Assembly (NCBI GenBank): GCA_016190445.1
Contig: JACPQL010000051.1
Location: forward strand, 38,505-102,504
Direction: 5' to 3'
DNA: 64,000 bases
Origin: Chloroflexota bacterium
Lineage (GTDB): Bacteria > Chloroflexota > Dehalococcoidia > Lucifugimonadales > JACPQL01
Shown: positions 37,442-59,522 of the stretch, piece by piece
How the letters are laid out: every line of letters begins with the position of its first letter
How positions within the stretch are numbered: the first letter of the stretch is position 1
Translations under genes and position numbers: made by a program
The notes under the pieces: generated by a model
What the model saw: only the letters and a program-made list of their open reading frames with translations
Database searches by the model: none
What the model was told of the DNA's origin: nothing

Positions 37442-37473
37442 AAGCTATTCGGAAAACCCTCACCCCCTTTGGT

Positions 37474-39650: not shown

Positions 39651-39680
39651 TTGACAACGCCGTCGGTGACATCCAAAATT
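39651..39680 (+). promoter_or_regulatory. Candidate sigma70-like promoter for SBP copy 1
   Basis: TTGACA (39651..39656) is followed after 17-18 nt by CAAAAT/AAAATT. This leaves a leader of about 200 nt before ATG 39883. The -10 box is weak. Confidence 0.4.
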
Positions 39681-39882: not shown

Positions 39883-41673
39883 ATGAAGGCAAACACCTGG
39901 ATTCGCCCCAGAGCCCTCTTGGTACTGGCAGGGCTGCTTGCGCTCCTGGCACTGCTGGGCGCCTGCGCCGGCGCCGAGCCCACCGCCACACCCACCTCCA
40001 CGCCGACACCGACCACGGCTGTGGGGCCCGCGCCTACCCCTACCCCTAAGCCCTCCCCCACGCCTACGCCTACGCCCCGAGTGGTGATGGTGGCCACGCC
40101 CACACCCACCGCCACGCCGGGCGCCGTCCAGCCCACCGTCCGGACCCCCAAGGGCAGCATCACCGTGGCTAGCGGCCCACTATCACAATACACTCACTCA
40201 CCGGACCGGCGTTTCAGCGTATCCGCCGACTCCTTCTTCCAGGGCATCGCCTTCGAGTGGCTGGTGGGGGTGACCCCGGAGCACGAGATTGTCACGATGC
40301 TGGCAGAGAGCTGGGAGACCCCGGACAACGGCCACACCTGGGTCTTCAAGCTGCGCAAGGGGGTCAAGTTCCACAACGGCAAGGAGATGACCGCCGAGGA
40401 CGTGGTCGCCAGCCATAACAGCGCCCAGCAGGTGGGCACAAGTAGCTACTCTGGATGGGCCAAGGAGAACCTGAACCCGTGGGAGGGGGTGGACAAGTAC
40501 ACCGTCCGCACATCTCTCAAAGAGGAGGGGCGTCGCCTCTTTGTACCCGCCTATCTTGCCCGCTCCTCCTGGTTCGCCCAGATCATGTCCCCCAAGGAGA
40601 TGTTCGACAAGTACCCCGACAAGCCTTGGCCCGTGGCTGACGCCATTGGCACCGGCCCCTACCGCCTGGTGGAGCTGGTCCGCGGCGAGAAGATGCGCGG
40701 CGTCGCCCTGGACCCCAAGTCTGACTGGGCCCACTGGCGCGTCGTCCCTGCCTTCAAGGAGATTACCCTCCGCCCAGTGAAAGAGGACGGCACCCGCATC
40801 GCCATGCTGAAGACCGGTGCCGCCGACCTCATTGACGTTCCCACCGCCCTCAAGAAAGAGGTGACCAACTTCACCAACGTCAGCGCCAAACACGGCGCCA
40901 CGGCGGGCATGGCAAACATGGAGGGCTTGGACCACGAACTCAGCAAGTGGTGGAAGGTCAAGGAGTTCCGCATGGCCCTCAATCTGGCCATTGACCGCCA
41001 GGAGATCGCCGACTTCCTCTTCAATGGCGAGGCCGAGCCCATTGCCGCCATGCACTTCTCCCCAGGAGCCGAGGGATTTGACCCGAGCCTGAAGCCCTAC
41101 CCCTACGACCCGGCCAAGGCCCGTCAACTTCTAAAGGACATCAACTTCGACTTCAACCACACCTTCAACGTCTGGCTCCGTGGCATGGGAGGTGTGCCCG
41201 AACTCCAGGCCCTGGGGGAGGCTATTGCGGCAAAGTGGGAGCGTGAGCTCGGTCTCAAGACCAAGCTCATCCCCACCGACGCCACGGTCAGCCAGAACGC
41301 TATGCGCGCCCATGATCCCACCATCGTGGGCCACTTCATCACCTTCCGCTCCACCAACTTCCCAGACCTGTCCGTGCCCATCACCACCTTCTCCTCCGAC
41401 CCAGAGCTAAGGGGGCAGCACCAGATCATCCCCTGGCACGGGAAGGCGGCCACCCACGACACGCTGGTGGCACTCGCGGGGGCGGCGGACCCAAAGGAGC
41501 GAGCCCGCCTGGCCGGGGAGATACAGCGCTATCTGTACGAGAACTACGTCCACGTCCAGGGATGGTCGGTCCACGTGCTGTACGCCTTCAACCCCAAGAC
41601 CATCAAAGAGTTCAAGCCCCTACAGGGCTCCACCTACCTCAACTTCCTGGAGTACCTGGAGCCGCCAAGCTAA
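39883..41673 (+). CDS. ABC transporter substrate-binding lipoprotein, family 5 (DppA/OppA type), array copy 1 (class A)
   Basis: ATG 39883 follows GGGAGGAGGAG. Lipobox-like LLALLGAC is followed by a PT-rich tether. Signature FKLRKGVKFHNGKEMTAEDV. Class A motif SPDRRFSVSADSFFQG. 596 aa. Confidence 0.9.
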   Translation: MKANTWIRPRALLVLAGLLALLALLGACAGAEPTATPTSTPTPTTAVGPAPTPTPKPSPTPTPTPRVVMVATPTPTATPGAVQPTVRTPKGSITVASGPLSQYTHSPDRRFSVSADSFFQGIAFEWLVGVTPEHEIVTMLAESWETPDNGHTWVFKLRKGVKFHNGKEMTAEDVVASHNSAQQVGTSSYSGWAKENLNPWEGVDKYTVRTSLKEEGRRLFVPAYLARSSWFAQIMSPKEMFDKYPDKPWPVADAIGTGPYRLVELVRGEKMRGVALDPKSDWAHWRVVPAFKEITLRPVKEDGTRIAMLKTGAADLIDVPTALKKEVTNFTNVSAKHGATAGMANMEGLDHELSKWWKVKEFRMALNLAIDRQEIADFLFNGEAEPIAAMHFSPGAEGFDPSLKPYPYDPAKARQLLKDINFDFNHTFNVWLRGMGGVPELQALGEAIAAKWERELGLKTKLIPTDATVSQNAMRAHDPTIVGHFITFRSTNFPDLSVPITTFSSDPELRGQHQIIPWHGKAATHDTLVALAGAADPKERARLAGEIQRYLYENYVHVQGWSVHVLYAFNPKTIKEFKPLQGSTYLNFLEYLEPPS

Positions 41674-41753
41674 CAACTGCCGCTGGTCCCCCAGTTGAAG
41701 GACCAGCACACGGAAGCTGCCTCGGTCAAGCTGGAACAGGAGGTAACCGGACA
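41674..41753 (+). repeat. Conserved short inter-SBP spacer (type 1 of 3 copies)
   Basis: It shares gaaggaccagcacacg...ggaacaggaggtaac(c/t)ggacaATGaaagcgag with 43545..43622 and 47446..47523. It contains the RBS and shows no terminator hairpin. Confidence 0.8.
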
Positions 41754-43544
41754 ATGAAAGCGAGAGCCAGGGGTCATTTTAGAATACTTTGGGGTCTGGC
41801 CGGAGCGCTGGCCGTCCTGGCACTGCTGGGCGCCTGCGCCGGCGCCGAGCCCACCGCCACGCCCACCTCCACTCCGACACCGACCACGGCTGTAGGACCC
41901 GCTCCAACGCCAACCCCCAGGCCCTCACCCACGCCAACGCCGACAACCCGCGTGGTGATGATCGCGACGCCCACCCCCACCCCCACGCCGGGCGCAGTGC
42001 AACCCACCACCAGGACACCCAGGGGCAGCATCACCGTGGCCAGTGGGCCCCTGGCTGCCTACCCCCACTCGCCAGACTATCGCTTCGGGACCTCGGGGGA
42101 TGCCTTCTTCCTGCATCTGGCCTTCGAGTGGCTGGTGGGGGTCACCCCTGAGCACCAGCTTGTACCCATGCTGGCGGAGAGCTGGGAGAGCCCAGATGGT
42201 GGCCACACCTGGGTCTTCAAGCTGCGCAAGGGGGTCAAGTTCCACAATGGCAAGGAGATGACCGCAGAGGACGTGGCCACCAGCTATAACAGCACCAGGA
42301 AGAGTGGCACCAGCACCAGTGCTGGGTGGGCGCGGGCGAACCTTACTGACTTTGTCGTCGTGGACAAGTACACCGTCCGCACTACCATGGCACGGGAAGG
42401 TCAAAAGCTCTTCCTGCCCGCCTATCTCGGGCGCTCCTCCTGGTACGCTCAGCCGATTTCCCCCAAGGAGATGTTCGACAAGTACCCCGACAAGCCCTGG
42501 CCCGCCTCTGACGCCATCGGCACCGCCCCCTATCGCCTGGCGGAGGTGGTGAGAGGCGAGAAGATGCGCGGCGTGGCCCTGGACCCCAAGACAGATTGGG
42601 CCCACTGGCGCATTGTCCCCGCCTTTAAGGAGGTCACCGTCCGCCCGGTGAAAGAGGATGGCACCCGAATCGCCATGCTGAAGACCGGCGCCGCAGACCT
42701 CATTGACGTGCCCACCGCCCTCAAGGGCGAGCTGGCGGCCTTTGCCAAAGCCTCCGCTAAGAACGGGGCCACCGCGGGCCTGGCCAACATCATGGGCATG
42801 GACCACCCCCTCAGCAAGTGGTGGCAGGTCAAAGAAGTGCGAATGGCGCTCAACATGGCCATTGACCGCCAGGAGATTGCCGACTTCCTGTTCAATGGAG
42901 AGGCGGAGCCCATCGCGGCCCTGCACTTCGGCCCCGGCACTGAGGGGTTCGACCCTAATCTCAAGCCCACCGCGTACGACCCGGTCAAGGCACGCCAGCT
43001 CCTCAAGGACGCAGGCTACGACATGAACTTCGTGTGGAATATCTGGCTCCGAAGCATGGCCGGGGTGCCGGAGCTTCAGGCCCTGGGTGAGGCCATCGCC
43101 GCCAAATGGGAAAAGGAGCTGGGCATCAAGACCAAGCTCATCCCCACCGACTCCACCGTCAGCGATAGAGCTATGCGTGACCACGATCCGGCCATCGTGG
43201 GCCACTTCCTGACCCGGCGCTCCACCAACTTCCCGGACGTCTCCCTGCCCATCAACACCTTCTCCGTCTCAACCGTCGTGAGAGGCAGCCATAGCATCGT
43301 CCCGTGGCATGAGGCAGGCCCCACAGACAAGCTTTACCTCGATCTGTCGGCTGCCGCCGACCCCAAGGAACGGGCCCGCATAGCCGGGCAGATACAGCGC
43401 TACCTGCACGACGAGTATGTCCACGTGGACGCCTGGTCGGTGAATGTGCTCTATGCCTATAACCCCAAGACCATAGGCAAGTGGACGCCCCTCCAGGGCT
43501 CTACCTATCTGCACTTCCTGGAGTACGCCGAGCCGCCAAGCTAA
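41754..43544 (+). CDS. Family-5 SBP lipoprotein, array copy 2 (class B)
   Basis: ATG 41754 (MKARARGHFRILWGLAGALAVLALLGAC). PT tether. SPDYRFGTSGDAFFLH. FKLRKGVKFHNGKEMTAEDV. 596 aa. Confidence 0.9.
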   Translation: MKARARGHFRILWGLAGALAVLALLGACAGAEPTATPTSTPTPTTAVGPAPTPTPRPSPTPTPTTRVVMIATPTPTPTPGAVQPTTRTPRGSITVASGPLAAYPHSPDYRFGTSGDAFFLHLAFEWLVGVTPEHQLVPMLAESWESPDGGHTWVFKLRKGVKFHNGKEMTAEDVATSYNSTRKSGTSTSAGWARANLTDFVVVDKYTVRTTMAREGQKLFLPAYLGRSSWYAQPISPKEMFDKYPDKPWPASDAIGTAPYRLAEVVRGEKMRGVALDPKTDWAHWRIVPAFKEVTVRPVKEDGTRIAMLKTGAADLIDVPTALKGELAAFAKASAKNGATAGLANIMGMDHPLSKWWQVKEVRMALNMAIDRQEIADFLFNGEAEPIAALHFGPGTEGFDPNLKPTAYDPVKARQLLKDAGYDMNFVWNIWLRSMAGVPELQALGEAIAAKWEKELGIKTKLIPTDSTVSDRAMRDHDPAIVGHFLTRRSTNFPDVSLPINTFSVSTVVRGSHSIVPWHEAGPTDKLYLDLSAAADPKERARIAGQIQRYLHDEYVHVDAWSVNVLYAYNPKTIGKWTPLQGSTYLHFLEYAEPPS

Positions 43545-43622
43545 CAACCGCCTGACCCTTTCGCCGAAGGACCAGCACACGCACGCTGCCTCGGGCAAGC
43601 TGGAACAGGAGGTAACTGGACA
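43545..43622 (+). repeat. Conserved short inter-SBP spacer (copy 2)
   Basis: Nearly identical to 47446..47523, and related to 41674..41753. Confidence 0.8.
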
Positions 43623-45413
43623 ATGAAAGCGAGCGACAGGGTCCACCTAAGAGTCCTTTTCGGCCTGGCCGGGCTGCTTGTGCTCCTGGCGCTTCTGGGC
43701 GCCTGCGCCGGCGCCGAGCCCACGCCGACGCCAACCCCCACGCCCACCCTGGCGCCGGGCGCACCCACGCCGGCGCCTACGCCCAGGCCTTCTCCTACCC
43801 CTACTCCAACGCCCCGAGTGGTGATGGTGGCCACGCCGACCCCCACGGCCACGCCAGGCGCGGTGAAGCCCAGCGTCCGGGAGCCCAAGGGCAGCATCAC
43901 CATAGCCAACGGAAGCTTTGTGAGCGCCGCCCATTCCCCAGACCGGCGGTTCAGCTCCTCAGCCTCCGACTACTTCTACCAGCAGTTGGCCTTTGAGTGG
44001 CTGGTGGACGTCAACCCGGAGCACCAGAATTTCTCCATGCTGGCGGAGAGCTGGGAGACGCCAGACCAGGGCCACACTTGGATATTCAAGCTCCGCAAGG
44101 GGATCAAGTTCCACAACGGCAAGGAGATGACCGCCGAGGACGTGGCCGCCAGCTACATCAGCAACCAGAAGGTGGGCCAGGGGAGCGGCGCCGACTGGCA
44201 AAGGGCGAACGTCGGACTGGTAGAGTCAGTGGACAGGTACACGGTGCGCTTCGTCCTGAAGCCCGAGGACCGCCGGGCGTTCCTGCCGCCCTACCTTGGC
44301 CGCTCCTCCTGGTTCTCCCAGGTCATCTCCCCCAAGGAGATGTTCGACAAGTACCCAGACAGGCCGTGGCCCGCTCAGGACGCCATAGGCACGGGCCCCT
44401 TCCGCCTGGTGGAGGTGGTGAGGGGTGAGAAGATGCGCGGCGTGGCCCTGGACCCCAAGACCGACTGGACCCACTGGCGAATCGTCCCCGCCTTCAAGGA
44501 GGTAATCGTACGCCCAGTCAAGGAGGACGGCACCCGCATCGCCATGTTGAAGACGGGAGCCGCTGACCTCATTGACGTGCCCACTGCCCTCAAGAAGGAG
44601 GTGGCTGCCTACCGCCTTGTCCGCTCCAAGCATGGTTCCACCGCTGGCCTGGCCAACTTCATGGGCATGGACCACCCACTGAGCAAGTGGTGGAGCAAGA
44701 AAGAGGTCCGCATGGCCCTCAATCTGGCCATTGACCGACAGGAGATCGCCGACCACATCTTTGGAGGCGAGGCCGACGTCATAGCGGCCACCCACTTCTA
44801 CCCAGGGGTGGAGGGGTTCGACCCGGACCTCAAGCCCTATCCCTACGACCCGGCCAGGGCACGCCAGCTCCTCAAAGACGCGGGCTACGACTTCAACAAC
44901 GTGTTCAACGTCTGGCTTTACGCTGCTAGCGGCGTGCCAGAACTCCCCGACCTGGGTGTAGCCATCGCCGCCATGTGGGAAAAGGAGCTAGGGGTGAAGA
45001 CCAAGCTCATCCCCACCGACTCTCCCACATTCACCAACATGGGGAAAGTCCACGACCCCTCTGTCGTGGGCCACTTCTGGACCCGCCGCTCCAGTAGCTT
45101 CCCGGACCTCACGGTGCCCGTCTCCACCTTCTCCGTCTCGCCAAAGATGCGAGGCGACCACCGCAACATCCCGTGGCACTTTGAGTCACCCACCGATGCG
45201 CTTGTAGTGGCCTTGCAGGCGGAGGCAGACCCCAAGGAGCGCGAGCGGCTCGCCAGACAGCTACAACGCATACTCTACGAGGACTACGTCCATATTCAGG
45301 GTTGGTCGGTGCCCGTGCTCTACGCCTTCAATCCGAAGACCATCAAGGAGTACGAGCCACTCAACGGCTCCACCTACCTGAACTTCCTGGAGAACCTGGA
45401 GCCGCCAGGCTAG
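43623..45413 (+). CDS. Family-5 SBP lipoprotein, array copy 3 (class C)
   Basis: MKASDRVHLRVLFGLAGLLVLLALLGAC. PT tether. SPDRRFSSSASDYFYQQLAFEWLVDVNP. IFKLRKGIKFHNGKEMTAEDV. 596 aa. Confidence 0.9.
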   Translation: MKASDRVHLRVLFGLAGLLVLLALLGACAGAEPTPTPTPTPTLAPGAPTPAPTPRPSPTPTPTPRVVMVATPTPTATPGAVKPSVREPKGSITIANGSFVSAAHSPDRRFSSSASDYFYQQLAFEWLVDVNPEHQNFSMLAESWETPDQGHTWIFKLRKGIKFHNGKEMTAEDVAASYISNQKVGQGSGADWQRANVGLVESVDRYTVRFVLKPEDRRAFLPPYLGRSSWFSQVISPKEMFDKYPDRPWPAQDAIGTGPFRLVEVVRGEKMRGVALDPKTDWTHWRIVPAFKEVIVRPVKEDGTRIAMLKTGAADLIDVPTALKKEVAAYRLVRSKHGSTAGLANFMGMDHPLSKWWSKKEVRMALNLAIDRQEIADHIFGGEADVIAATHFYPGVEGFDPDLKPYPYDPARARQLLKDAGYDFNNVFNVWLYAASGVPELPDLGVAIAAMWEKELGVKTKLIPTDSPTFTNMGKVHDPSVVGHFWTRRSSSFPDLTVPVSTFSVSPKMRGDHRNIPWHFESPTDALVVALQAEADPKERERLARQLQRILYEDYVHIQGWSVPVLYAFNPKTIKEYEPLNGSTYLNFLENLEPPG

Positions 45414-45434
45414 GACAGCCATGGCCACCATCCC

Positions 45435-45468
45435 AGGTCCCGCCCCGGGGGACATCGGGGCGGGACCT
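45435..45468 (+). terminator. Hairpin terminator candidate after SBP copy 3
   Basis: A 13-bp stem aggtcccgccccg (45435..45447) pairs with cggggcgggacct (45456..45468) across an 8-nt loop. The downstream T-tract is weak. Confidence 0.55.
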
Positions 45469-45482
45469 GTTATCCCTACCAG

Positions 45483-45512
45483 TTGACAATGATGACATAG
45501 GTCAGCTAGACT
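45483..45512 (+). promoter_or_regulatory. Sigma70-like promoter for SBP copy 4
   Basis: TTGACA (45483..45488), 18 nt, TAGACT (45507..45512). The leader is about 135 nt. Confidence 0.55.
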
Positions 45513-45651
45513 CGTCGCACCACGCGCCAGAGTGGGCCTTTGAGTCCGCATGTGTGCGCTTGCGGGACGAATTTCGTAGCGCCTGTATCCCTCCCGGCAC
45601 CTAGCCCAGGGGAGGGAGTGACCGGGGTTGTCCCCCAGGAGGAGGTAGGCA

Positions 45652-47445
45652 ATGCAACTCACCACCAGGATTCGACCCAAGGCCCTCTGGGCACTGGCAG
45701 GGCTGCTGGCGCTCCTGGCACTGCTGGGGGCCTGTGCCGGTGCCGAGCCCACCGCCACGCCCACCTCCACTCCGACACCGACCACGGCTGTAGGGCCCGC
45801 TCCGACGCCCACACCCAAGGCTTCGCCCACCCCTACCCCAACGCCCCGCGTCATCCTTGTGGCAACCCCCACGCCCACGCCCACGCCGGGGGCTGTGAAA
45901 CCTGCCGTCCGCGAGCCCAGGGGAGGTATCACCGTGGCCAACGGGCCTCTGGCCAACTACCCCCAGTCACCGGACTACCGGTTCGGCGTGTCCGGCGACG
46001 TCTTCTTCCTGCACCTCGCCTTCGAATGGCTGGTGGGGGTAACCCCGGACCACCAGCTCGTCTCCATGCTGGCGGAGAGCTGGGAGACCCCCGACAACGG
46101 CCACACCTGGGTCTTCAAGCTGCGCAAGGGCGTCAAGTTCCACAATGGCAAGGAGATGACCGCCGAGGACGTGGCCACCAGCTATAACTCATGCGCCGCG
46201 AAGGGCACGAACACCACCCTCTGCGGCTGGAACAGGAGCACCCTGACCGCCTTTGAGGTGGTGGACAAGTATACGGTGCGCACCTCCCTCAAGCGCGAAG
46301 GGGACAAGCTCTTCCTGCCGGCCTACCTTGGCCGCTCCTCCTGGTACGGTCAGGTGATCTCGCCCAAGGAGCTTTTCGAAAAGTACCCCGACAGGCCGTG
46401 GCCTGGGGGCGAATCTATAGGCACGGGCCCTTACAGACTGGTGGAGGTGGTGAGGGGCGAGAAGATGCGGAGCATTGCCCTGGACCCCAAGACTGACTGG
46501 GCCCAATGGCGCGTCGTCCCAGCCTTCAAGGAGGTCAACGTCCTCCCAGTCAAGGAAGATGGCACCCGCATAGCCATGCTCAAGACAGGCGCCGCCGACC
46601 TCATTGACGTCCCCACCGCCCTCAAGAAGGAGGTGGCGTCCTACGCCAAAGCCTCGGCCAAGCACGGCGCCACCGCTGGCCTGGCCAACATCATGGGCAT
46701 GGACCACCCCCTCAGCAAGTGGTGGAGCAAGAAAGAGGTCCGCATGGCCCTAAACCTGGCCATTGACCGCCAGGAGATCGCCGACTTCCTCTTCAACGGC
46801 GAGGCCGAGCCTATCGCCGCCCTCCACTTCTCCCCCACCGCGGAGGGGTTCGATCCCAACCTGAAGCCCCACCCGTACGACCCGGCGAAGGCTCGCCAGC
46901 TCCTCAAGGACGCCAACTACGACATGAACTTCGTGTGGAACATATGGCTTCGCGCCATGGGCGGGGTCCCCGAGCTCCAGGCACTGGGAGAGGCCATCGC
47001 CGCCAAGTGGGAGAAGGAGCTGGGCCTCAAGACCAAGCTCGTCCCCACTGACGCCACCGTCAGCCAGAGTGCCATGGAGAAGCACGACCCGGCCATCGTG
47101 GGCCACTTCCTTACTCGGCGCTCCACCAACTTCCCCGATCTCTCCGTGCCCATCAACACCTTCTCAGTCTCCGCAGCGCTGAGGGGCAGCCACACCACAA
47201 TACCCTGGCACGAGGCTAGCCCAATAGACCCGCTCAACCTCCAGCTCGCAGCGGCGTCGGACCCCAAGGAGCGGGCCCGCATAGCCGGGCAGATACAGCG
47301 CTACCTGCACGACGAGTTCGTGCACGTGGGCGACTGGTCGGTGCACGTGCTGTACGCCTACAACGCCAAGACCATAGGCAAGTGGACGCCCCTCCAGGGC
47401 TCCACCTATCTGCACTTCCTGGAGTACGCCGAGCCGCCAAGCTAA
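45652..47445 (+). CDS. Family-5 SBP lipoprotein, array copy 4 (class B)
   Basis: GGAGGAGG RBS. MQLTTRIRPKALWALAGLLALLALLGAC. SPDYRFGVSGDVFFLH. The C-terminus GKWTPLQGSTYLHFLEYAEPPS is identical to copy 2. 597 aa. Confidence 0.9.
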   Translation: MQLTTRIRPKALWALAGLLALLALLGACAGAEPTATPTSTPTPTTAVGPAPTPTPKASPTPTPTPRVILVATPTPTPTPGAVKPAVREPRGGITVANGPLANYPQSPDYRFGVSGDVFFLHLAFEWLVGVTPDHQLVSMLAESWETPDNGHTWVFKLRKGVKFHNGKEMTAEDVATSYNSCAAKGTNTTLCGWNRSTLTAFEVVDKYTVRTSLKREGDKLFLPAYLGRSSWYGQVISPKELFEKYPDRPWPGGESIGTGPYRLVEVVRGEKMRSIALDPKTDWAQWRVVPAFKEVNVLPVKEDGTRIAMLKTGAADLIDVPTALKKEVASYAKASAKHGATAGLANIMGMDHPLSKWWSKKEVRMALNLAIDRQEIADFLFNGEAEPIAALHFSPTAEGFDPNLKPHPYDPAKARQLLKDANYDMNFVWNIWLRAMGGVPELQALGEAIAAKWEKELGLKTKLVPTDATVSQSAMEKHDPAIVGHFLTRRSTNFPDLSVPINTFSVSAALRGSHTTIPWHEASPIDPLNLQLAAASDPKERARIAGQIQRYLHDEFVHVGDWSVHVLYAYNAKTIGKWTPLQGSTYLHFLEYAEPPS

Positions 47446-47523
47446 CAACTGCCTGGCCCTTTCGCCGAAGGACCAGCACACGCAAGCCGCCTCAGCCAAG
47501 CAGGAACAGGAGGTAACTGGACA
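47446..47523 (+). repeat. Conserved short inter-SBP spacer (copy 3)
   Basis: See 43545..43622. The homology continues into the 5' end of copy 5, matching that of copy 3 (ATGaaagcgagcg.cagggtccacctaagagtcctttt). Confidence 0.8.
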
Positions 47524-49314: not shown

Positions 49315-49334
49315 CATGACCCCACCACCCCTCG

Positions 49335-49366
49335 AGGCCCACCCTGGCGGGTGGGCCTCCTTTTTT
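49335..49366 (+). terminator. Rho-independent terminator after SBP copy 5
   Basis: aggcccaccc-tggc-gggtgggcct is followed by cc-tttttt-g. Confidence 0.8.
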
Positions 49367-49473
49367 GCTTTCCCGCAATTGTTGCGCCGCTTCCGTCGGT
49401 TGTTGCCACCACCATCCCAGCCCCCAATGTCAGGACGGCCCGTCATCTGTGCAGAACCTCATGAACCCGCAAT

Positions 49474-49502
49474 TTGACAGGACACAGGGGGCCAAATATC
49501 CT
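49474..49502 (+). promoter_or_regulatory. Sigma70-like promoter for SBP copy 6
   Basis: TTGACA (49474..49479), 17 nt, TATCCT (49497..49502). The surrounding block gaacccgcaatttgacaggaca.agggggccaaatatcct is duplicated at 51491..51532. Confidence 0.6.
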
Positions 49503-49551
49503 GGGCGCGTCTAGTTACGAATACACACTACTCCACGGAGGAGGTTGAGGC

Positions 49552-51342: not shown

Positions 51343-51362
51343 AATGGTCGTGGCCACCGTTC

Positions 51363-51396
51363 AAGGCCCACCCTGGCGGGTGGGCCTTCTTTTTTG
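51363..51396 (+). terminator. Rho-independent terminator after SBP copy 6
   Basis: aaggcccaccc-tggc-gggtgggcctt is followed by c-tttttt-g. It is homologous to the terminator at 49335. Confidence 0.8.
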
Positions 51397-51503
51397 CTTT
51401 CCTGTGGTTTTCGCTCTGCCTCCTTGGGGTTGTTGCCACCGCGGCCGGAGTCCCCGGTGCAAGAGCTACCCGCCATTTGTGCAGCACATCCCGAACCCGC
51501 AAT

Positions 51504-51532
51504 TTGACAGGACAGAGGGGGCCAAATATCCT
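51504..51532 (+). promoter_or_regulatory. Sigma70-like promoter for SBP copy 7
   Basis: TTGACA (51504..51509), 17 nt, TATCCT (51527..51532). Confidence 0.6.
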
Positions 51533-51587
51533 CTCCCGCGGCTGGTTACGAAGAACCACGGCTTCAGTAGAAGGAGGACTAGGCACA

Positions 51588-53375: not shown

Positions 53376-53397
53376 ACCAGCAGCCGCCGCGCAGGAG

Positions 53398-53430
53398 GGC
53401 CCGCTCCGGTGTGACCGGAGCGGGCCTTTC
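53398..53430 (+). terminator. Hairpin terminator after SBP copy 7
   Basis: A 12-bp stem ggcccgctccgg-tgtga-ccggagcgggcc is followed by tttcc. Confidence 0.65.
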
Positions 53431-53510
53431 CTCTGCCACCTGCAACCCTTGCCACGATGCCATCCCCGGTACCTTTCCCCAGCCCTCCAGCAAATCCACG
53501 CGCACCCCAC

Positions 53511-53540
53511 TTGACAAAAGCGCCGATAGCCCCCTACACT
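53511..53540 (+). promoter_or_regulatory. Sigma70-like promoter for SBP copy 8
   Basis: TTGACA (53511..53516), 18 nt, TACACT (53535..53540). The leader is about 150 nt. Confidence 0.55.
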
Positions 53541-53691
53541 CCCCCTACTACCCACTTCTGGAAGGGCACCAGAGGTTGGTACCGTCTACACCCTCGACGC
53601 TTCGAGACGGATTTCGTACCCCACTCCTCCTGCTCCGGGGTAGCGTCACGGGAAAGCCATAACGGCCCACATATCATCTGGGAGGTGCATA

Positions 53692-55482
53692 GTGAAACGT
53701 AGATACTGGATTCGACCCAAGGCCCTCTGGGCACTGGCGGGGCTGCTGGCGCTTGTAGCGCTGCTCGGCGCCTGCGCCGGCGCCGAGCCCACCGCCACAC
53801 CCACTTCCACTCCCACACCCACCACGGCGGTAGGGCCCGCGCCAACACCCACACCCAGGCCATCACCCACCCCAACACCTACACCCCGCATCGTCGTGGT
53901 GGCAACGCCCACTCCCACACCCACGCCGGGCGCGGTCAAGCCCACCGTCCGCGAGCCCAAGGGGAGCATCACCTTCGCCAGCGGGCCCCTCTCCGCATAC
54001 TCGCACTCCCCGGACCGCCGCTTCAGCGTGGCCGCCGACTCCTTCTTCCAGGGCCTCGCCTTCGAGTGGCTGGTGGGAGTGACCCCCGACCACCAGCTCG
54101 TCTCCATGCTGGCAGAGAGCTGGGAGAGCCCTGACAACGGCCATACCTGGATCTTCAAGCTGCGCAAGGGGGTCAAGTTCCACAACGGCAAGGAGATGAC
54201 CGCCGAGGACGTGGCCGCCAGCTTCAACAGCGCCGCGGCTGTAGGCACGGGCACCTCCGCCGCGTGGCCCCGGTCCAACCTCACCCCCTTTGAGGTGGTG
54301 GACCAGTACACCGTTCGCACCTCGCTGAAGACAGAGGGGCGCCGGATGTTCGTGCCGGCCTACCTTAGCCGCTCCTCCTGGACGGCCCAGGTCGTCTCCC
54401 CCAAGGAGATGTTCGAGAAGTACCCCGACAAGCCGTGGCCTGTCTCCGACGCCATCGGGACCGGCCCCTACCGGCTGGTGGAGGTGGTTCGTGGCGAGAA
54501 GATGCGCGGCGTCGCCCTGGACCCCAAGACCGACTGGACCCACTGGCGAATCGTCCCCGCCTTCAAAGAGGTAATCGTCCGCCCGGTCAAGGAGGATGGC
54601 ACACGAATCGCCATGCTGAAGACCGGGGCCGCCGACCTCATTGACGTGCCCACCGCCCTCAAGAAGGAGGTGGCCGCCTTCACCAACGTCAGCGCCAAGG
54701 GCGGCGCCACCGCGGGCCTGATTAACCACGAGGGCATGGACGCCGAGGTGAGCAAATGGTGGAAGGTCAAAGAAGTCCGCATGGCCCTCAACCTGGCCAT
54801 TGACCGCCAGGAGATCGCCGACTTCCTCTTCAACGGCGAGGCCGACCCCATCGCCGCCATGCACTTCTCCCCAGGAACCGAGGGGTTCGACCCATCCCTC
54901 CAGCCGTACCCCTATGACCCCGTCAAGGCGCGCCAGCTCCTCAAGGACGCCAACTACGACATGAACTACGTGTGGAACATCTGGCTGCGCGGCATGGGCG
55001 GCGTCCCCGAGCTACAGTCCCTGGGCGAGGCCATCGCTGCCAAGTGGGAGCAGGAGCTGGGCGTCAAGACCAAGCTCATCCCCACCGACGCCACCGTCAC
55101 CGGCAACCTTATGGACAAGCACGACCCCAGCATCGTTGGGCAGTTCGTCACGTTCCGCTCCACCAACCATCCCGACGTATCGCTGCCCATCGTGACCTTC
55201 TCCGCCGACCCGGAGCTGTACGGGCGGCACGAGCTGAACCCCTGGCACGGCACTGCGCCCACCCACGACAACATTGTGGCTCTTGGCGCAGAGTCCAACC
55301 CCAAGGAGCGCGACCGCATTGCTCGAGAGCTACAGCGCTACCTGTATGATAACTACATCCACGTGCAGGGCTGGTCGGTAAACGTCCTGTACGCCTACAA
55401 CCCCAAGACCGTAGGCAAGTTCACCCCACTCCAGGGCTCCACCTACCTCAACTTCCTGGAGTACATCGAGCCCTCCAGCTAG
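53692..55482 (+). CDS. Family-5 SBP lipoprotein, array copy 8 (class A)
   Basis: GTG start after GGGAGG. MKRRYWIRPKALWALAGLLALVALLGAC. SPDRRFSVAADSFFQG. QFVTFRSTNHPD. 596 aa. Confidence 0.9.
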   Translation: MKRRYWIRPKALWALAGLLALVALLGACAGAEPTATPTSTPTPTTAVGPAPTPTPRPSPTPTPTPRIVVVATPTPTPTPGAVKPTVREPKGSITFASGPLSAYSHSPDRRFSVAADSFFQGLAFEWLVGVTPDHQLVSMLAESWESPDNGHTWIFKLRKGVKFHNGKEMTAEDVAASFNSAAAVGTGTSAAWPRSNLTPFEVVDQYTVRTSLKTEGRRMFVPAYLSRSSWTAQVVSPKEMFEKYPDKPWPVSDAIGTGPYRLVEVVRGEKMRGVALDPKTDWTHWRIVPAFKEVIVRPVKEDGTRIAMLKTGAADLIDVPTALKKEVAAFTNVSAKGGATAGLINHEGMDAEVSKWWKVKEVRMALNLAIDRQEIADFLFNGEADPIAAMHFSPGTEGFDPSLQPYPYDPVKARQLLKDANYDMNYVWNIWLRGMGGVPELQSLGEAIAAKWEQELGVKTKLIPTDATVTGNLMDKHDPSIVGQFVTFRSTNHPDVSLPIVTFSADPELYGRHELNPWHGTAPTHDNIVALGAESNPKERDRIARELQRYLYDNYIHVQGWSVNVLYAYNPKTVGKFTPLQGSTYLNFLEYIEPSS

Positions 55483-55506
55483 GGCCACCGCGGAACTGCC
55501 CGGCAA

Positions 55507-55542
55507 AGGGCCCGCCCCGGTGTTATCGGGGCGGGCCCTTCC
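55507..55542 (+). terminator. Hairpin terminator after SBP copy 8
   Basis: A 13-bp stem agggcccgccccg (55507..55519) pairs with cggggcgggccct (55527..55539), followed by tcctt. Confidence 0.65.
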
Positions 55543-55570
55543 TTATCGCAAGCGCCGCCGCCCAAACGCC

Positions 55571-55600
55571 TTGACAATGTTCATAGGAGGCGGCTACACT
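55571..55600 (+). promoter_or_regulatory. Sigma70-like promoter for the permease pair
   Basis: TTGACA (55571..55576), 18 nt, TACACT (55595..55600). The -10 hexamer is the same as in the copy-8 promoter. Confidence 0.55.
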
Positions 55601-55670
55601 GGCGGCATCCTTGCGGGGTCGCAGCAACGGATCGAAATGCCGTTGGCGGGACGCGGGAGGGAGAGGGTAA

Positions 55671-56588
55671 GTGCAAGGCTACATTTTGCGGCGGGTACTG
55701 GAGGGGCTGGCTGCCATACTCCTCATGACGGTCATAGTGTTCGCACTGGCACGCCTTTCAGGCAGCCCAGTGGACCTGGTGGCCGGCGAGTACGCCACCG
55801 ACGAGGACAGGGCCCGAGTTACCCACATGCTGGGACTGGACCGACCGGTGGCCCTGCAATACTGGATATTCCTCAAGAACTTCATGCGAGGTGACCTGGG
55901 GGAGTCTATCCGCACCCGTGAGAAGGTCACCGCCTCCATTCTGCACCGCTTTCCCGCCACGCTTCAACTGGCGGGAGGATCCCTCTTGGTGGCCCTTGTT
56001 ATAGCCGTTCCCCTGGGAGTGATCACCGCGGTCAAACGGGACACCAACATAGACACTGCGGGCAAGACCTTTGCCGTTTTGGGCCTGGCTCTGCCCAGCT
56101 TCTGGCTGGGCCTGGTGTTCATTGCCATCTTCGCAGTCAGGCTCCACTGGCTGCCTGCGGCCGGCAGAGGCGGGTTTAGCTACATGATCTTGCCTGCCGT
56201 GGCTATGGGGTGGCACGTCTCTGCTGGCATCCTGCGCCTGGTGCGTGGCAGCATGCTGGAGGTGCTGGACAGCGAGTACATCAAGCTGGCACGCATCAAG
56301 GGACTGCCGGAGTGGAAAGTGGTGTGGAAACACGCCCTGCGCAACGCCGTCATCGCCCCCATAACCTTCACTGCGGTCTACCTGGGCACCTTGCTCGCTG
56401 GCTCGGTAGTGATCGAAACGGTGTTCGTCTGGCCCGGGGTGGGCTTGCTGGCCATCGAGGCCTTCGGCTGGAGAGACTACCCGCTGGTACAGGGCATCAT
56501 CCTCTACATGACTGTTCTGTATATCTTCCTGAACTTGCTGGTGGACATTCTGTACGCTTACGTGGACCCGCGTATCCGGCTGACGTAA
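55671..56588 (+). CDS. ABC transporter permease, DppB/OppB-like
   Basis: GTG start after GGGAGGGAGAGGG. MQGYILRRVLEGLAAILLMTVIVFALARLSG is the typical N-terminus. The binding-protein-dependent transport inner-membrane component region is present (SEYIKLARIKGLPEWKVVWKHALRNA). 305 aa. Confidence 0.9.
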   Translation: MQGYILRRVLEGLAAILLMTVIVFALARLSGSPVDLVAGEYATDEDRARVTHMLGLDRPVALQYWIFLKNFMRGDLGESIRTREKVTASILHRFPATLQLAGGSLLVALVIAVPLGVITAVKRDTNIDTAGKTFAVLGLALPSFWLGLVFIAIFAVRLHWLPAAGRGGFSYMILPAVAMGWHVSAGILRLVRGSMLEVLDSEYIKLARIKGLPEWKVVWKHALRNAVIAPITFTAVYLGTLLAGSVVIETVFVWPGVGLLAIEAFGWRDYPLVQGIILYMTVLYIFLNLLVDILYAYVDPRIRLT

Positions 56589-56603
56589 CCCTCTGGAGAG
56601 CTG

Positions 56604-57500
56604 ATGGTGGATACTACTACTGCTGCCCCAATCCCTGGGCGGATCAACACCAGGACTCAGATGTTCCGCCATCTGCGGCGGATGCCCATCCTGCCGGCCG
56701 TGATCATAGTAGTCATGGTGGGAATGGCCGTGCTGGCGCCTGTGCTTTCCCCCCATTCACCCACCAGTGGCATACTGCGCGACCAGCTCAAGCCCCCCAT
56801 GTGGCTGGAGGGTGGCAGCGGTGAATACCCGCTGGGCACAGACCGCTTCGGACGAGACATCCTCTCTCGCATGATGCACGGTGCAAGGATATCGCTCATT
56901 GTGTCGCTGGTCTCCCTGGCGATAGGTGCCACCGTGGGCGCCACCCTGGGGCTCATATCGGGCTACCTGGGACGCTGGGTGGACGCCCTCATCATGCGCA
57001 TCGTGGACATGACGCTGTCCCTCCCGTTGTTCCTCATGGCCATAGTCCTGGCAGTGATCCTGGGGCCCAACCTCCTGAACGTGATCATCATAGTGGCCTT
57101 CCTGATATGGGCACGCTACGCCCGCATCATCCGGGGGGAGGTGCTCTCCCTTAGAAGCAGGGACTTCGTGGCTCTGGCTAGGGTGGCAGGTGCCTCCCAC
57201 ACACGTATCATTGTCAAGCACCTCTTCCCCAACGTGGCGCACACCCTCGTCATCCTCATAACCCTTCAGGTAGGGTGGGTCATCTTGCTGGAATCATCCC
57301 TCAGCTTCCTGGGCGTGGGCATCCCACCGCCCACCCCAGCCTGGGGCCTGATGGTGGCCGACGGCCGGAACTACGTGGACACGGCCTGGTGGATCTCGGT
57401 GGTCCCTGGCATCGCCATCGCGCTGATCGTTCTCTCCCTCAACCTGGCCGGCGACTGGCTGCGGGATGTGCTGGACCCCAGGCGCCGCCAGATGGCCTAG
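56604..57500 (+). CDS. ABC transporter permease, DppC/OppC-like
   Basis: PLGTDRFGRDILSRMMHGARISL is the OppC N-terminal motif. The EAA-like loop SRDFVALARVAGASHTRIIVKHLFPN is present. 298 aa. Confidence 0.9.
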   Translation: MVDTTTAAPIPGRINTRTQMFRHLRRMPILPAVIIVVMVGMAVLAPVLSPHSPTSGILRDQLKPPMWLEGGSGEYPLGTDRFGRDILSRMMHGARISLIVSLVSLAIGATVGATLGLISGYLGRWVDALIMRIVDMTLSLPLFLMAIVLAVILGPNLLNVIIIVAFLIWARYARIIRGEVLSLRSRDFVALARVAGASHTRIIVKHLFPNVAHTLVILITLQVGWVILLESSLSFLGVGIPPPTPAWGLMVADGRNYVDTAWWISVVPGIAIALIVLSLNLAGDWLRDVLDPRRRQMA

Positions 57501-57537
57501 CATCCTACCCGGCCTCTGATTCAGTCCTGGGCACACC

Positions 57538-57572
57538 AAAAGGCCCGCCCCAATGGGGCGGGCCTTTCCTTT
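57538..57572 (+). terminator. Terminator after the permease pair
   Basis: aaa-aggcccgcccc-aat-ggggcgggcct-ttcctttg: an 11-bp stem with A-rich 5' and T-rich 3' flanks. Confidence 0.75.
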
Positions 57573-57647
57573 GCCGGAGTGGCCCCACTCACACCTCAGC
57601 GCACGAATGGCCTTTCTGAATTGCGGAAAACTTCACAAGCTGACAGG

Positions 57648-57676
57648 TTGACAAGGGAAATAGGCCGCAATATACT
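57648..57676 (+). promoter_or_regulatory. Sigma70-like promoter for the SBP copy 9 / acyl-CoA dehydrogenase / CoA-transferase unit
   Basis: TTGACA (57648..57653), 17 nt, TATACT (57671..57676). Confidence 0.6.
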
Positions 57677-57776
57677 CTGGCCCTGTTGACCGCGGCCACA
57701 CCCCAGGACTCCCCAAAGGAGACACACCACGAAACCGAGCATCCACATCCGCTTCAATGTCTTTCTGCCACTGGTT

Positions 57777-59522
57777 GTGATACTGGCTCTTGTAGCGCTG
57801 CTCGGCGCCTGCGCTGGCGCTGAGCCCACCGCCACACTCGCTCCAACTCCCACGCCCACCCTGGCTCCCGGGGCGCCCGCGCCAACGCCCACGCCCAGGC
57901 CTTCTCCTACCCCTACACCAACACCCCGAGTGGTGATGGTGGCCACGCCGACCCCCACGGCCACGCCAGGCGCGGTGGCACCCACCGTCCGGGAGCCCAA
58001 GGGGAGCGTCACTGTGGCCTGGGCAGCCTTTGCCACAGACGCCAACTCGCCAGACAGGCGCTTCAGCCCATCGGGCTCAGACGCCGTCTTCCAGAGCCTC
58101 GCCTTCGAGTATCTGGTGGGTGTTACCCCCGAGCACCAGCTCGTCTCCATGCTGGCGGAGAGCTGGGAGAGCCCAGATAACGGTCATACCTGGGTCTTCA
58201 AACTGCGAAAGGGGGTCAAGTTCCACAACGGCAAGGAGATGAGCGCCGAGGACGTAGCCGCGACCTTCAACAGCTACATGAAGGTGGGCAGAGGCTCATC
58301 TGGCACGTGGTCCAAGGCGAACCTGAACCCCTACGAGGTGGTGGACAAGTACACAGTGCGCACCTCCTTCAAGCAGGAAGGCGTTCGGATGTTCCTGCCA
58401 GCCTACCTTGGCCGGTCTTCCTGGTTCGCCGGGGTGGTCTCCCCGAAGGAGATGTTCGAGAAGTACCCGGACAAGCCCTGGCCTGCGAGTGAGGCCATAG
58501 GCACCGGCCCCTACCGGCTGGCGGAGCTTGTCCGAGGCGAAAAGGTACGGCTGGTGGCCCTGGACCCCAGGACCGACTGGGTCCAGTGGCGAATCATCCC
58601 AGCCTTCAAGGAGATAATCGTCAAGCCGGTCGCCGAGGACGGCACACGGATTGCCATACTCAAGACCAGCGCCGCCGCCCTGATAGACGTCCCCACGTCG
58701 CTGAAGGGCGAGGTCTCCGGGTATACCCTCGCCAGGGCCGACGCGGGCGCCACCCTGGCCGTCTCGAACCACGAGGGGATGGACAACCCCCCGGACGGGT
58801 GGTGGACCAAGAAAGAGTTCCGCATGGCCCTTAACCTGGCTGTGGACAAACAGGCGGTGGCCGACTTCATTTTCAATGGCGAGGCCAAAGTCACACCTGC
58901 GTACCACTTCTATCCAGGAGCGGAGGGGTTTGACCCCGACCTGAAGCCCTACCCCTACGACCCGGCCCGGGCACGCCAGCTCCTCAAGGACATCAACTAC
59001 GACTTCAACTACGTGTTCAACGTATGGCTCTACAAGTGGAGCGGCGTGCCCGAGCAGCGGGAGTTCGGCACAGCGGTTGCCGCCATGTGGGAACGGGAGC
59101 TGGGCATCAAGACCAAGCTCATCCCCTCTGACACCTCCTCGTACCCGTTATTCCAGAACCACGACCCGCAGACAGTTGGCCAGTTCTTCGCCTCTCGCTC
59201 TACCAGTTTCCCCGACCTGTCGGTGCCAATCATGACCTTTTCCGTCTCAGCAGGGCTGAAAGGCCAACACAGGAACACTCCGTGGCACGGCAAGGGGCTC
59301 ACCGACGATCTCACGGTGGAGCTTGCTGCCGCCGTGGACCCGGCTGAGCGAAGCCGCATCGCCCGCCAGATAGAGCGCGTCCTGTACGACGAATACGTCC
59401 ACGTCCAGGGGTGGGCTGTGAACGTCCTCTTCGCCTACAACCCCAAGCAGATCAAGGAGTTCAAGCCCCTCCAGGGCTCCACCTATATGAACTTCCTGGA
59501 ATACCTGGAACCACCCAGCTAG
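57777..59522 (+). CDS. Family-5 SBP lipoprotein, array copy 9 (class C, most divergent)
   Basis: ALVALLGAC lipobox plus PT tether. SPDRRFSPSGSDAVFQSLAFEYLVGVTP. FKLRKGVKFHNGKEMSAEDV. The only canonical start is GTG 57777, which leaves an n-region-less signal peptide (see findings). 581 aa as called. Confidence 0.85.
   Translation: MILALVALLGACAGAEPTATLAPTPTPTLAPGAPAPTPTPRPSPTPTPTPRVVMVATPTPTATPGAVAPTVREPKGSVTVAWAAFATDANSPDRRFSPSGSDAVFQSLAFEYLVGVTPEHQLVSMLAESWESPDNGHTWVFKLRKGVKFHNGKEMSAEDVAATFNSYMKVGRGSSGTWSKANLNPYEVVDKYTVRTSFKQEGVRMFLPAYLGRSSWFAGVVSPKEMFEKYPDKPWPASEAIGTGPYRLAELVRGEKVRLVALDPRTDWVQWRIIPAFKEIIVKPVAEDGTRIAILKTSAAALIDVPTSLKGEVSGYTLARADAGATLAVSNHEGMDNPPDGWWTKKEFRMALNLAVDKQAVADFIFNGEAKVTPAYHFYPGAEGFDPDLKPYPYDPARARQLLKDINYDFNYVFNVWLYKWSGVPEQREFGTAVAAMWERELGIKTKLIPSDTSSYPLFQNHDPQTVGQFFASRSTSFPDLSVPIMTFSVSAGLKGQHRNTPWHGKGLTDDLTVELAAAVDPAERSRIARQIERVLYDEYVHVQGWAVNVLFAYNPKQIKEFKPLQGSTYMNFLEYLEPPS

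Follow-up and report, generated by a model that had tools for sequence, protein, structure and literature searches.

Several binding proteins per ATP-binding cassette (ABC) importer are an established arrangement. In Pseudomonas aeruginosa the Dpp translocator DppBCDF is served by five solute-binding proteins (SBPs), DppA1 to DppA5 (PMC4206461, PMC12728205). Here we describe a related locus in a 64-kb stretch of DNA (the window) from the metagenome-assembled genome (MAG) of an uncultured groundwater Chloroflexota, in which nine genes for family-5 SBP lipoproteins (PF00496; SBP5), all on the plus strand, lie around one DppB/DppC-like permease pair over 19.6 kb in total. The array extends known biology and implies no new mechanism.

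Like DppA1 to DppA5, the nine products are paralogous family-5 SBPs clustered around DppB/C-type permease genes, with nine receptors here against five in P. aeruginosa. The SBPs of P. aeruginosa have distinct substrate profiles and feed one translocator, an arrangement that we propose for the array too. The P. aeruginosa operon carries the ATPases DppD and DppF and imports di- and tripeptides; the array has no ATPase genes, its SBPs lack the peptide clamp residues and, unlike P. aeruginosa Dpp, it is embedded in genes of acyl-CoA metabolism. Its receptors are lipoproteins on long Pro/Thr linkers, while those of P. aeruginosa are free periplasmic proteins, and the array SBPs are about 19% identical to DppA. 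The three-domain cluster-C fold of the array SBPs is shared by NikA, GsiB (YliB), GbpA, AccA, MoaA and AgaA, and several solved cluster-C SBPs bind anionic, carboxylate-rich ligands (nickel polycarboxylates, glutathione and opine acids). The NikA residue His416 and the charge clamps of DppA and GbpA are not conserved in the array, and those receptors are single-copy.

Importers can also depend on ATPases encoded elsewhere in the genome. MsiK of Streptomyces is an unlinked multitask ATPase of this kind. In Bacillus subtilis the unlinked ATPase MsmX is shared by several sugar importers (PMC5730181). Operons dependent on MsmX or MsiK resemble the array in having SBP and permease genes without an ATPase gene, and for the array we infer a similar supply in trans. 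The MsmX and MsiK systems are, however, CUT1 sugar importers with one homodimeric ATPase, whereas a Dpp/Opp-type permease pair normally works with two ATPases (D and F).

A third precedent comes from the SAR202 Chloroflexota, in which paralog expansions, including that of the CaiB/BaiF coenzyme A (CoA)-transferases, are related to the catabolism of recalcitrant organic matter (PMC5395668, PMC10444878). The likeness lies in the phylum, in the abundance of family-III CoA-transferase paralogs and in the use of many paralogs to cover many acyl substrates. The SAR202 passages of PMC5395668 deal with enzyme paralog families and transporter counts, and tandem SBP arrays are unmentioned in them. The expansion described here is on the uptake side and in a groundwater MAG, whereas SAR202 is marine.

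On balance, we think that the array encodes nine separately promoted, probably individually regulated receptors for related carboxylic acids, which share one translocator energised by ATPases encoded in trans. What distinguishes the locus is the size of the array, the single permease pair without ATPase genes, the layout with one promoter per unit, the loss of signature residues and the link to CoA-transferases.

The nine-gene array and its permease pair

The copies were numbered S1 to S9 in gene order; along the DNA, S1 to S8 are followed by the permease genes PermB and PermC and then by S9. Eight of the proteins are 595-597 amino acids long and S9 has 581. The original prediction, made from the letters of the sequence, had placed nine same-strand open reading frames (ORFs) at the starts of Table 1 (the GTG for S9), and all nine were found on the plus strand in the ORF list and by translation. 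Family-5 membership, for which a profile search had been proposed, was confirmed by Pfam scores of 207.8 bits for S1 and 185.8 bits for S9 against a gathering cut-off of 32.4, and by precomputed protein-database assignment to PF00496 for the other seven copies. The lipobox LLGAC and the C-terminal ending (Q/N)GSTY(L/M)(N/H)FLE..EP occur in 9/9 copies as described, and all nine also share a Pro/Thr-rich linker and the block FKLR(K/Q)G(V/I)KFHNGKEM; FKLR is preceded by V or I, not by F or I as had been given. By motif class the gene order is A B C B C B A A [permeases] C with a single permease pair, as predicted, and the reading of the genes as tandem family-5 SBP lipoprotein paralogs beside one permease pair is supported.

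Identity between copies is 66-83% for the proteins and 71-82% for the DNA, and 256 of the 601 alignment columns are invariant. Five variable blocks account for much of the difference, with 40-72% identity within the blocks and 70-88% outside them. The predicted clustering in blocks was borne out, and the 75-90% identity proposed for the remainder is corrected to this 70-88%. Pairwise synonymous divergence (dS) is 0.47-0.9, the ratio of nonsynonymous to synonymous divergence (dN/dS) is 0.19-0.43 and all copies are full length. Since dS is thus about 0.5-0.9 and dN/dS about 0.2-0.4, the copies are old duplicates that have been kept by selection. Block-wise Nei-Gojobori estimates gave a dN/dS of 0.26-0.59 in the five hypervariable blocks compared with 0.14-0.28 elsewhere, always below 1, and lend no support to pervasive diversifying selection.

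S9 is the one copy whose start departs from the rest. Where the other copies have their ATG, S9 has an ACG (57729); an intact AAGGAG stands 8 nucleotides (nt) upstream of this ACG, which lies 28 codons ahead of the lipobox cysteine, exactly as in S1. No Shine-Dalgarno sequence precedes the first canonical start, a GTG at 57777, and a signal peptide begun there would have no charged n-region. These features could mean that expression of S9 is weak, that a non-canonical start is used, that the gene is an incipient pseudogene or that the consensus contains an error.

It is quite unlikely that the copies are redundant, the product of a dosage-related or neutrally drifting amplification in which specificity has stayed the same and some members, such as S9, are decaying. 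A dN/dS below 1 even in the variable blocks, the lost canonical start of S9 and a frameshifted SBP5 paralog (P0019) in the same MAG are in keeping with such an amplification. The copies are nevertheless old and full-length with a low dN/dS, their class motifs are conserved within classes, their variation is concentrated non-randomly at pocket-homologous positions (see below), and their separate promoters argue for differential use.

The motifs SPDRRFSV.ADSFFQG (class A), SPD(Y/F)RFG.SGD.FFLH (class B) and SPDRRFS.S.SD (class C) are present in every copy for which they had been quoted. The three classes of three proposed on this basis hold exactly for the pocket motifs and are recovered in part by phylogeny: a neighbour-joining tree with outgroups grouped S1, S7 and S8 (89.5%), S2 with S4 (100%) and S3 with S5 (100%), placed S6 with S2/S4 at 42% only and left S9 unplaced. 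The spacers S1-S2, S2-S3 and S4-S5 are mutually homologous and 78-80 nt long. With 82% identity between S2 and S4, 78% between S3 and S5 and homologous spacers, S2-spacer-S3 and S4-spacer-S5 seem to have arisen by duplication of one pair of genes. Between the S5-S6 and S6-S7 spacers, each taken with the 5' coding sequence downstream of it, identity is 79% across 763 nt. Strong gene conversion or mosaicism was considered and set aside, as sliding-window best-partner analysis and comparison of leaders with mature parts gave mild discordance only; between S9 and S3, for example, identity is 85% in the leader and 71% in the mature part. No recent conversion tracts were found among the nine copies.

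Repeats can be misassembled, and because this sequence comes from a MAG the array might have been expanded or mis-joined from fewer true copies. We regard this as extremely unlikely, because no two copies have in common any DNA segment of 60 nt or longer that matches at 88% or above, and every spacer of the array is distinct. Eight of the nine proteins are also protein-database entries from one 185,593-bp contig of the MAG (accessions MBI287xxxx, locus tags HYY00_). The all-against-all DNA comparison that had been proposed as a check, with its 71-82% identity, speaks against an expanded repeat, and the copies have distinct flanking promoters and terminators.

An exhaustive HMMER scan of 1.84 billion cluster representatives placed the nine copies in a single 50% cluster, with the next protein 38% identical. 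Among GTDB species representatives, a set in which the host MAG is absent, no match above 36% identity was found, and no orthologous nine-gene array in relatives was present in the databases searched. The single 50% cluster and the distance to the next protein mark the array as a lineage-private expansion. On other contigs, the same MAG carries a second tandem SBP5 array of four genes (MBI2871799-802; P0010, P0014, P0013, P0009), whose products are 65-80% identical to each other and 33% to the nine, as well as one dispersed copy (P0011); P0019 is apparently frameshifted after about residue 320. Receptor expansion is thus genome-wide in the host organism. In Dehalococcoidia MAGs, same-strand SBP5 arrays of at least six genes (L073, 2-11809, reaching the edge of the locus) and of four genes (L052, 4213-13841, with an HpcH aldolase ahead) were found; no permease pair lies near either within the 21 kb covered.

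These three arrays are, like the nine, same-strand tandem series of diverged family-5 SBP lipoprotein paralogs. They differ in being only 25-35% identical to the nine, with 33-70% between their own copies, and none has nine copies in the sequence covered. Because arrays also occur at L073, at L052 and at a second locus of the same MAG, tandem SBP5 expansion recurs in Chloroflexota and is no isolated curiosity. The statement that the array far exceeds classical multi-receptor cases accordingly holds against P. aeruginosa DppA1-5 and does not hold against the arrays of at least six and of four in Dehalococcoidia MAGs or the second array of four in the same MAG.

Sequence signals divide the locus into seven predicted transcription units: [S1-S2-S3], [S4-S5], [S6], [S7], [S8], [PermB-PermC] and [S9 + acyl-CoA genes]. 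Each of the seven long spacers contains a perfect TTGACA -35 box with an acceptable -10 box, and promoter-like sites number 12 observed against 1.9 expected. Perfect GC-rich hairpins of 11-18 bp follow the upstream dehydrogenase gene, S3, S5, S6, S7, S8 and PermC (z of -2.4 to -4.7), while no promoter or significant hairpin was found in the three short spacers S1-S2, S2-S3 and S4-S5. With separate promoter and terminator units, receptor subsets could be induced independently and the channel expressed separately, and the units would be differentially regulated. An 11-bp palindrome, ACGAATTTCGT, in the S4 leader has a near-copy, ACGGATTTCGT, in the S8 leader; TTACGAA half-sites stand directly behind the -10 box of the S6 (49515-49521) and S7 (51546-51552) promoters, and 5/8 TACGAA/TTCGTA hexamers in the 64 kb fall in or beside array leaders. 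Together these sites hint at a common regulator with a candidate operator. Rfam, searched for riboswitches and other known RNAs that might lie in the long leaders, matched nothing but the tRNA. An antigenic or phase-variation cassette was also rejected: the units have separate promoters, and a reading of the spacers, without a dedicated repeat scan, revealed no invertible or slippage element.

PermB and PermC are BPD_transp_1 proteins of the Dpp/Nik/Gsi type, with all NCBIfam matches under the equivalog cut-offs. The closest outsider of PermB is 58% identical and lies on a small contig (L001) that also carries an SBP outsider 37% identical to the array. Multi-receptor importers combine at least two paralogous SBPs clustered with a single permease pair, here nine with one, and DppD/DppF-type ATPase genes in the cluster, which are absent within the window. 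No ABC ATPase gene was found in the 64 kb by Pfam searches of the large ORFs or by a six-frame scan for Walker A and LSGGQ motifs. The ATPases would then be supplied in trans. ATPase sharing is known for sugar importers, and we have come across no case in the literature for the Dpp/Opp-type class; at another locus (L029), two permease pairs stand beside one ATPase pair.

We infer that all nine receptors dock on this PermB/PermC pair. Some or most of them could instead be orphans that work with permeases, sensors or chemotaxis partners elsewhere, leaving the local pair to one or a few, and we give this a small chance. Separately promoted receptor units, a permease pair that forms its own unit and the permease-less SBP5 arrays of the Dehalococcoidia MAGs are in line with orphan receptors. 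The nine are, however, closer to one another (66-83%) than to any other protein (38% or less), they are clustered round a single permease pair, and their 70-88% identity outside the variable blocks is compatible with one docking partner.

Variable segments and the binding pocket

An AlphaFold2 (AF2) model of S1, built from a 117-sequence alignment, has a mean predicted local distance difference test score of 87.4 and shows a cluster-C SBP fold, with residues 28-71 in the Pro/Thr linker disordered. Foldseek searches of the PDB with this model matched NikA, DppA, GsiB/YliB, GbpA, AccA, MoaA and AgaA with a probability of 1.0 and 18-23% identity, Brucella NikA ranking first, and a sequence search of the PDB returned the same set of proteins. 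Target-normalised template-modelling scores were 0.72-0.82 against NikA, DppA, GsiB, AccA and MoaA. The Pfam score, the three-domain bilobed fold and an export signal with adjacent BPD_transp_1 genes are together those of SBP_bac_5 proteins. The closest characterised homolog of the array SBPs is at most about 23% identical. Ligand assignment from the nearest solved structures was tried and was uninformative, as at about 20% identity the matches span nickel, peptides, glutathione, opines and sialic acid.

As a separate observation, the cassette that follows the lipobox, C-AGAEPTATPTP...R(V/I)V(M/L/V)(V/I)ATPTPTPT (S1 residues 28-90, 39964-40150), is near-identical across the nine copies. Nearly the same cassette occurs in the second SBP5 family of the MAG (P0009-P0014, P0018 and P0019), whose mature domains are about 33% identical to the nine. 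A short hydrophobic stretch, RVVxVA, lies inside the disordered linker.

For a view of the pocket, E. coli NikA and DppA were aligned to the family profile with MAFFT and hmmalign, with largely concordant results, and published ligand contacts were mapped onto the array. DppA Tyr357 and Trp386, which we take from the DppA structures to be further contacts, were included. The NikA contacts were Tyr22, Thr23, Met27, Arg97, Trp100, Arg137, Tyr382, Arg386, Trp398, Tyr402, Ser415 and His416 (PMC11091072), and in DppA the charged residues Arg355 and Asp408 clamp the C- and N-terminus of the peptide (PMC12136057, PMC3295651). This gave 15 mapped positions, in S1 numbering 110, 111, 117, 187, 190, 229, 435, 437, 467, 471, 475, 488, 492, 494 and 510.

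Mean entropy at the 15 contact-homologous positions was 1.12 bits over the nine copies compared with a background of 0.66 (permutation p = 0.007), and 60% of these positions were variable compared with 25% of the background. The pattern is bimodal: Arg110, Phe111, Ser229/Trp230, Gly437 and Pro494 are invariant, and positions 117, 190, 471, 475 and 488 are among the most variable of the protein. The class-defining SPDxRF... loop aligns with the Tyr22-Met27 loop of NikA, the variable block after EDVA with Arg97/Trp100, the TD....HDP helix with the NikA alpha-11 helix (Tyr382/Arg386) and with DppA Trp386, and the TFS...PWH loop close to Ser415/His416. Judged from their homology with NikA and DppA, the few blocks in which differences had been predicted to cluster thus coincide with ligand-contact segments. 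This is suggestive of a specificity that was diversified around a constant anchoring core, and a receptor battery that would widen the substrate range fits the block-wise pocket variation.

Two cysteines ten residues apart occur only in S4 (181/191, about 46192-46224) and S6 (180/190, about 50089-50121). They belong to the variable block aligned to NikA Arg97/Trp100 (S1 equivalent 40423-40455) and probably form a disulfide that staples a pocket loop in these two copies alone.

If the receptors do differ in ligand, nine proteins that are 66-83% identical and differ in a few pocket segments would make a natural panel for ligand screening and for the study of how a pocket is re-tuned. Substrates of family-5 SBPs are notoriously hard to predict, and such a panel could teach rules of specificity.

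Candidate ligands and a proposed uptake route

The residues that hold a peptide in DppA are replaced throughout the array. By two alignment methods, DppA Arg355 (S1 435) aligns with M, Q, A or W and Asp408 (S1 492) with N or S in 9/9 copies. NikA His416 falls in an insertion without a counterpart in the nine copies, in a loop whose alignment is uncertain. Scores against the equivalog models for DppA, OppA, NikA, GsiB, CntA and SapA were all far under the cut-offs, at 57-73 bits against 1005 for DppA, 35-55 against 947 for OppA and 95-98 against 393 for NikA (TIGR02294). From their sequences, the array SBPs are predicted to be neither peptide nor nickel binders.

A classical peptide battery, with OppA/DppA-like receptors of differing peptide preference as in P. 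aeruginosa DppA1-5 or Borrelia OppA1-5, is on this evidence unlikely. Membership of PF00496, permeases that resemble DppB/C, NikB/C and GsiC/D, and the documented multi-SBP Dpp systems (PMC4206461, PMC12728205) would suit peptide uptake, but both DppA clamps are replaced in every copy and the DppA and OppA scores of 35-73 bits stand against cut-offs of 947-1005. Nor are there peptidase genes nearby, the neighbours being CoA-transferases and acyl-CoA enzymes both here and in the nearest relatives.

Receptors for metal chelates or metallophores of the NikA/CntA kind, taking up nickel, cobalt or other metal complexes, are highly improbable. NikA is among the best matches, both by TIGR02294 and as the first Foldseek hit from Brucella, the models that fit the permeases best, Opp2B and Opp2C, are of the nickel type, and NikA binds metal-polycarboxylate complexes (PMC11091072). 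All these scores, however, are far under the equivalog cut-offs of 393-800 bits, His416 is without a counterpart, and it is difficult to see why trace metals should require nine receptors. The gene context is one of carbon catabolism, with no nickel enzymes or metallophore synthesis genes among the window annotations.

That context is set by four family-III CoA-transferases in the window. Two adjoin the array, and two more lie 8 kb upstream of it at 28606-32641 together with a divergent major facilitator superfamily (MFS) transporter that matches lactate and oxalate/formate carriers best; these three genes form a further module for taking up and activating carboxylates. The best sub-threshold matches of the CoA-transferases are succinyl-CoA:mesaconate, succinate-glutarate and formyl-CoA/oxalate transferases; those of the acyl-CoA dehydrogenase are pimeloyl-CoA and glutaryl-CoA dehydrogenases. 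Similar neighbours recur at related SBP genes. At L002 (SBP 38% identical) the order is enoyl-CoA hydratase, SBP, PermB, PermC and CoA-transferase; at L003 (33%) it is acyl-CoA dehydrogenase, CoA-transferase, SBP, CoA-transferase, SBP, PermB and PermC, then LUD, ChsH2 and thiolase; at L001 (37%) it is SBP, PermB, PrpD/MmgE and PermC, with PrpD/MmgE in place of the CoA-transferase. No ATPase gene stands beside the permeases at these three nearest outsider loci. An SBP5 gene of the same MAG (P0018; L086, 6051-7802) directly follows two CoA-transferase genes, and CoA-transferases occur at 10/80 more distant loci. A neighbourhood of the SBP clade with CoA_transf_3 or other acyl-CoA enzymes thus recurs in the window, L002, L003 and L086. 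In SAR202, the expansion of CaiB/BaiF CoA-transferase paralogs is read in passages of PMC5395668 as serving broad activation and catabolism of acyl compounds.

Because of the CoA-transferase context, the SAR202 precedent and the loss of the peptide clamps, the ligands may be a series of related carboxylic acids, an assignment to which we give a little under an even chance. In the route that we propose, nine lipid-anchored receptors on disordered Pro/Thr linkers of about 60 residues would each capture one of several small organic acids of related chemistry, the likeliest being (di)carboxylates or hydroxy-acids. Loaded receptors would dock on the common PermB/PermC channel, and import would be driven by ATP-binding subunits encoded elsewhere in the genome. 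The imported acid would be activated by the adjoining family-III CoA-transferases and then processed by the acyl-CoA dehydrogenase, the aldolase and the 2-hydroxyacid dehydrogenase. Six receptor units and a separate permease unit would allow receptor subsets to be induced independently.

Several points weigh against this carboxylate route and the shared channel. The proposed unlinked ATPase genes were not located, the sequence covered being that of the window, and some receptors may serve permeases elsewhere because they have separate promoters. Since dN/dS is below 1 in the hypervariable blocks, these may reflect relaxed constraint instead of adaptive diversification, and S9, which has no canonical start at the homologous position, may be poorly expressed. 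The pocket mapping was made from sequence alignments alone, at about 20% identity and over 15 positions. The CoA-transferase link is guilt by association, and terminators part S1-S8 from the catabolic genes, with which only S9 appears to be co-transcribed.

Should the carboxylate route hold, an uncultured groundwater Chloroflexota would widen its diet at the point of uptake, with one channel, nine separately promoted receptors and an ATP-free activation by CoA-transferases. A carboxylate-uptake system coupled to family-III CoA-transferases is a grouping proposed here and not an established family. Wider still, and rather doubtful, is the idea that this SBP5 clade and a looser CoA-transferase-linked group of Chloroflexota SBP5 proteins represent an unrecognised use of Dpp/Opp-type systems, namely high-affinity capture of diverse carboxylic acids, in which shared ATPases encoded elsewhere would energise the permeases and arrays of individually regulated, surface-tethered receptors would set the range. 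On that idea the ligands could be, for example, dicarboxylate or alicyclic acids of refractory dissolved organic matter, and the nine-gene array would match, on the side of uptake, the expansions of catabolic paralogs that have been proposed for Chloroflexota. The locus also draws attention to Dpp/Opp-type permease pairs without linked ATPases.

Coordinates and other features of the window

The positions of the array genes, their putative regulatory sites and their neighbours are collected in Table 1.

Table 1 Features of the receptor array and its flanks, in positions of the 64-kb window
Feature	Position	Strand	Remarks
HpcH/HpaI-family aldolase, upstream neighbour	37469..38491	+	
D-2-hydroxyacid dehydrogenase, upstream neighbour	38531..39508	+	
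Terminator hairpin after 2-hydroxyacid dehydrogenase gene	39534..39562	+	parts upstream genes from S1
Promoter-like site before S1	39651..39679	+	TTGACA-17-CAAAAT
S1, SBP5 lipoprotein, motif class A	39883..41673	+	heads unit S1-S2-S3; PF00496 208 bits; AF2 model
Short spacers S1-S2, S2-S3, S4-S5	41674..41753, 43545-43622, 47446-47523	+	Shine-Dalgarno only
S2, SBP5 lipoprotein, class B	41754..43544	+	82% identical to S4
S3, SBP5 lipoprotein, class C	43623..45413	+	78% identical to S5
GC-rich terminator hairpin after S3	45434..45469	+	15-bp stem, z = -3.8
Promoter-like site before S4	45483..45512	+	TTGACA-18-TAGACT
11-bp palindrome ACGAATTTCGT, S4 leader, candidate operator	45567..45577	.	sequence
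S4, SBP5 lipoprotein, class B	45652..47445	+	heads unit S4-S5; Cys181/Cys191
S5, SBP5 lipoprotein, class C	47524..49314	+	ORF and motifs
Intrinsic terminator after S5	49334..49359	+	11-bp stem and T6
Promoter-like site before S6	49474..49502	+	TTGACA-17-TATCCT
S6, SBP5 lipoprotein, class B pocket motifs	49552..51342	+	own unit; weak tree placement; Cys180/Cys190
Intrinsic terminator after S6	51363..51388	+	11-bp stem and T6
Promoter-like site before S7	51504..51532	+	TTGACA-17-TATCCT
S7, SBP5 lipoprotein, class A	51588..53375	+	own transcription unit
GC-rich terminator hairpin after S7	53393..53432	+	z = -4.7
Promoter-like site before S8	53511..53540	+	TTGACA-18-TACACT
Near-copy ACGGATTTCGT of palindrome, S8 leader	53607-53617	.	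sequence
S8, SBP5 lipoprotein, class A	53692..55482	+	own transcription unit; GTG start
GC-rich terminator hairpin after S8	55506..55540	+	16-bp stem, z = -3.1
Promoter-like site before permease pair	55571..55600	+	TTGACA-18-TACACT
Permease B (PermB), DppB/NikB-like	55671..56588	+	BPD_transp_1_N and BPD_transp_1 (Pfam)
Permease C (PermC), DppC/NikC-like	56604..57500	+	OppC_N and BPD_transp_1 (Pfam)
GC-rich terminator hairpin after PermC	57539..57567	+	13-bp stem, z = -3.6
Promoter-like site before S9	57648..57676	+	TTGACA-17-TATACT, 11/12 matches
S9, SBP5, class C motifs, most divergent copy	57729..59522 (ORF from GTG: 57777..59522)	+	homologous start is ACG
Acyl-CoA dehydrogenase	59535..60716	+	12 nt past S9
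Family-III CoA-transferase	60691..62013	+	
Family-III CoA-transferase	62125..63366	+	
tRNA-Ser, end of cluster	63559-63650		

Outside the array, four consecutive very large ORFs of 1156, 607, 2124 and 1629 amino acids lie on the minus strand at 133-17432. Two of them contain CARDB, Big_13 or fn3 repeats, the 607- and 1629-residue ORFs being without a Pfam match, and together they presumably form a cell-surface or adhesin-like cluster. An ORF at 24324-25481 joins an N-terminal HTH_17 domain to a UbiA prenyltransferase domain, which would be an unusual fusion provided that the gene has been called correctly, and adjoins UbiE and a second UbiA gene. A PAS-LuxR regulator gene stands directly ahead of a cytochrome c oxidase operon (COX2, COX1, COX3) at 33081-37441, and ccmF/ccmH genes are present at 18382-21110; the oxidase operon and the ccmF/ccmH genes therefore indicate an aerobic lifestyle of the MAG.

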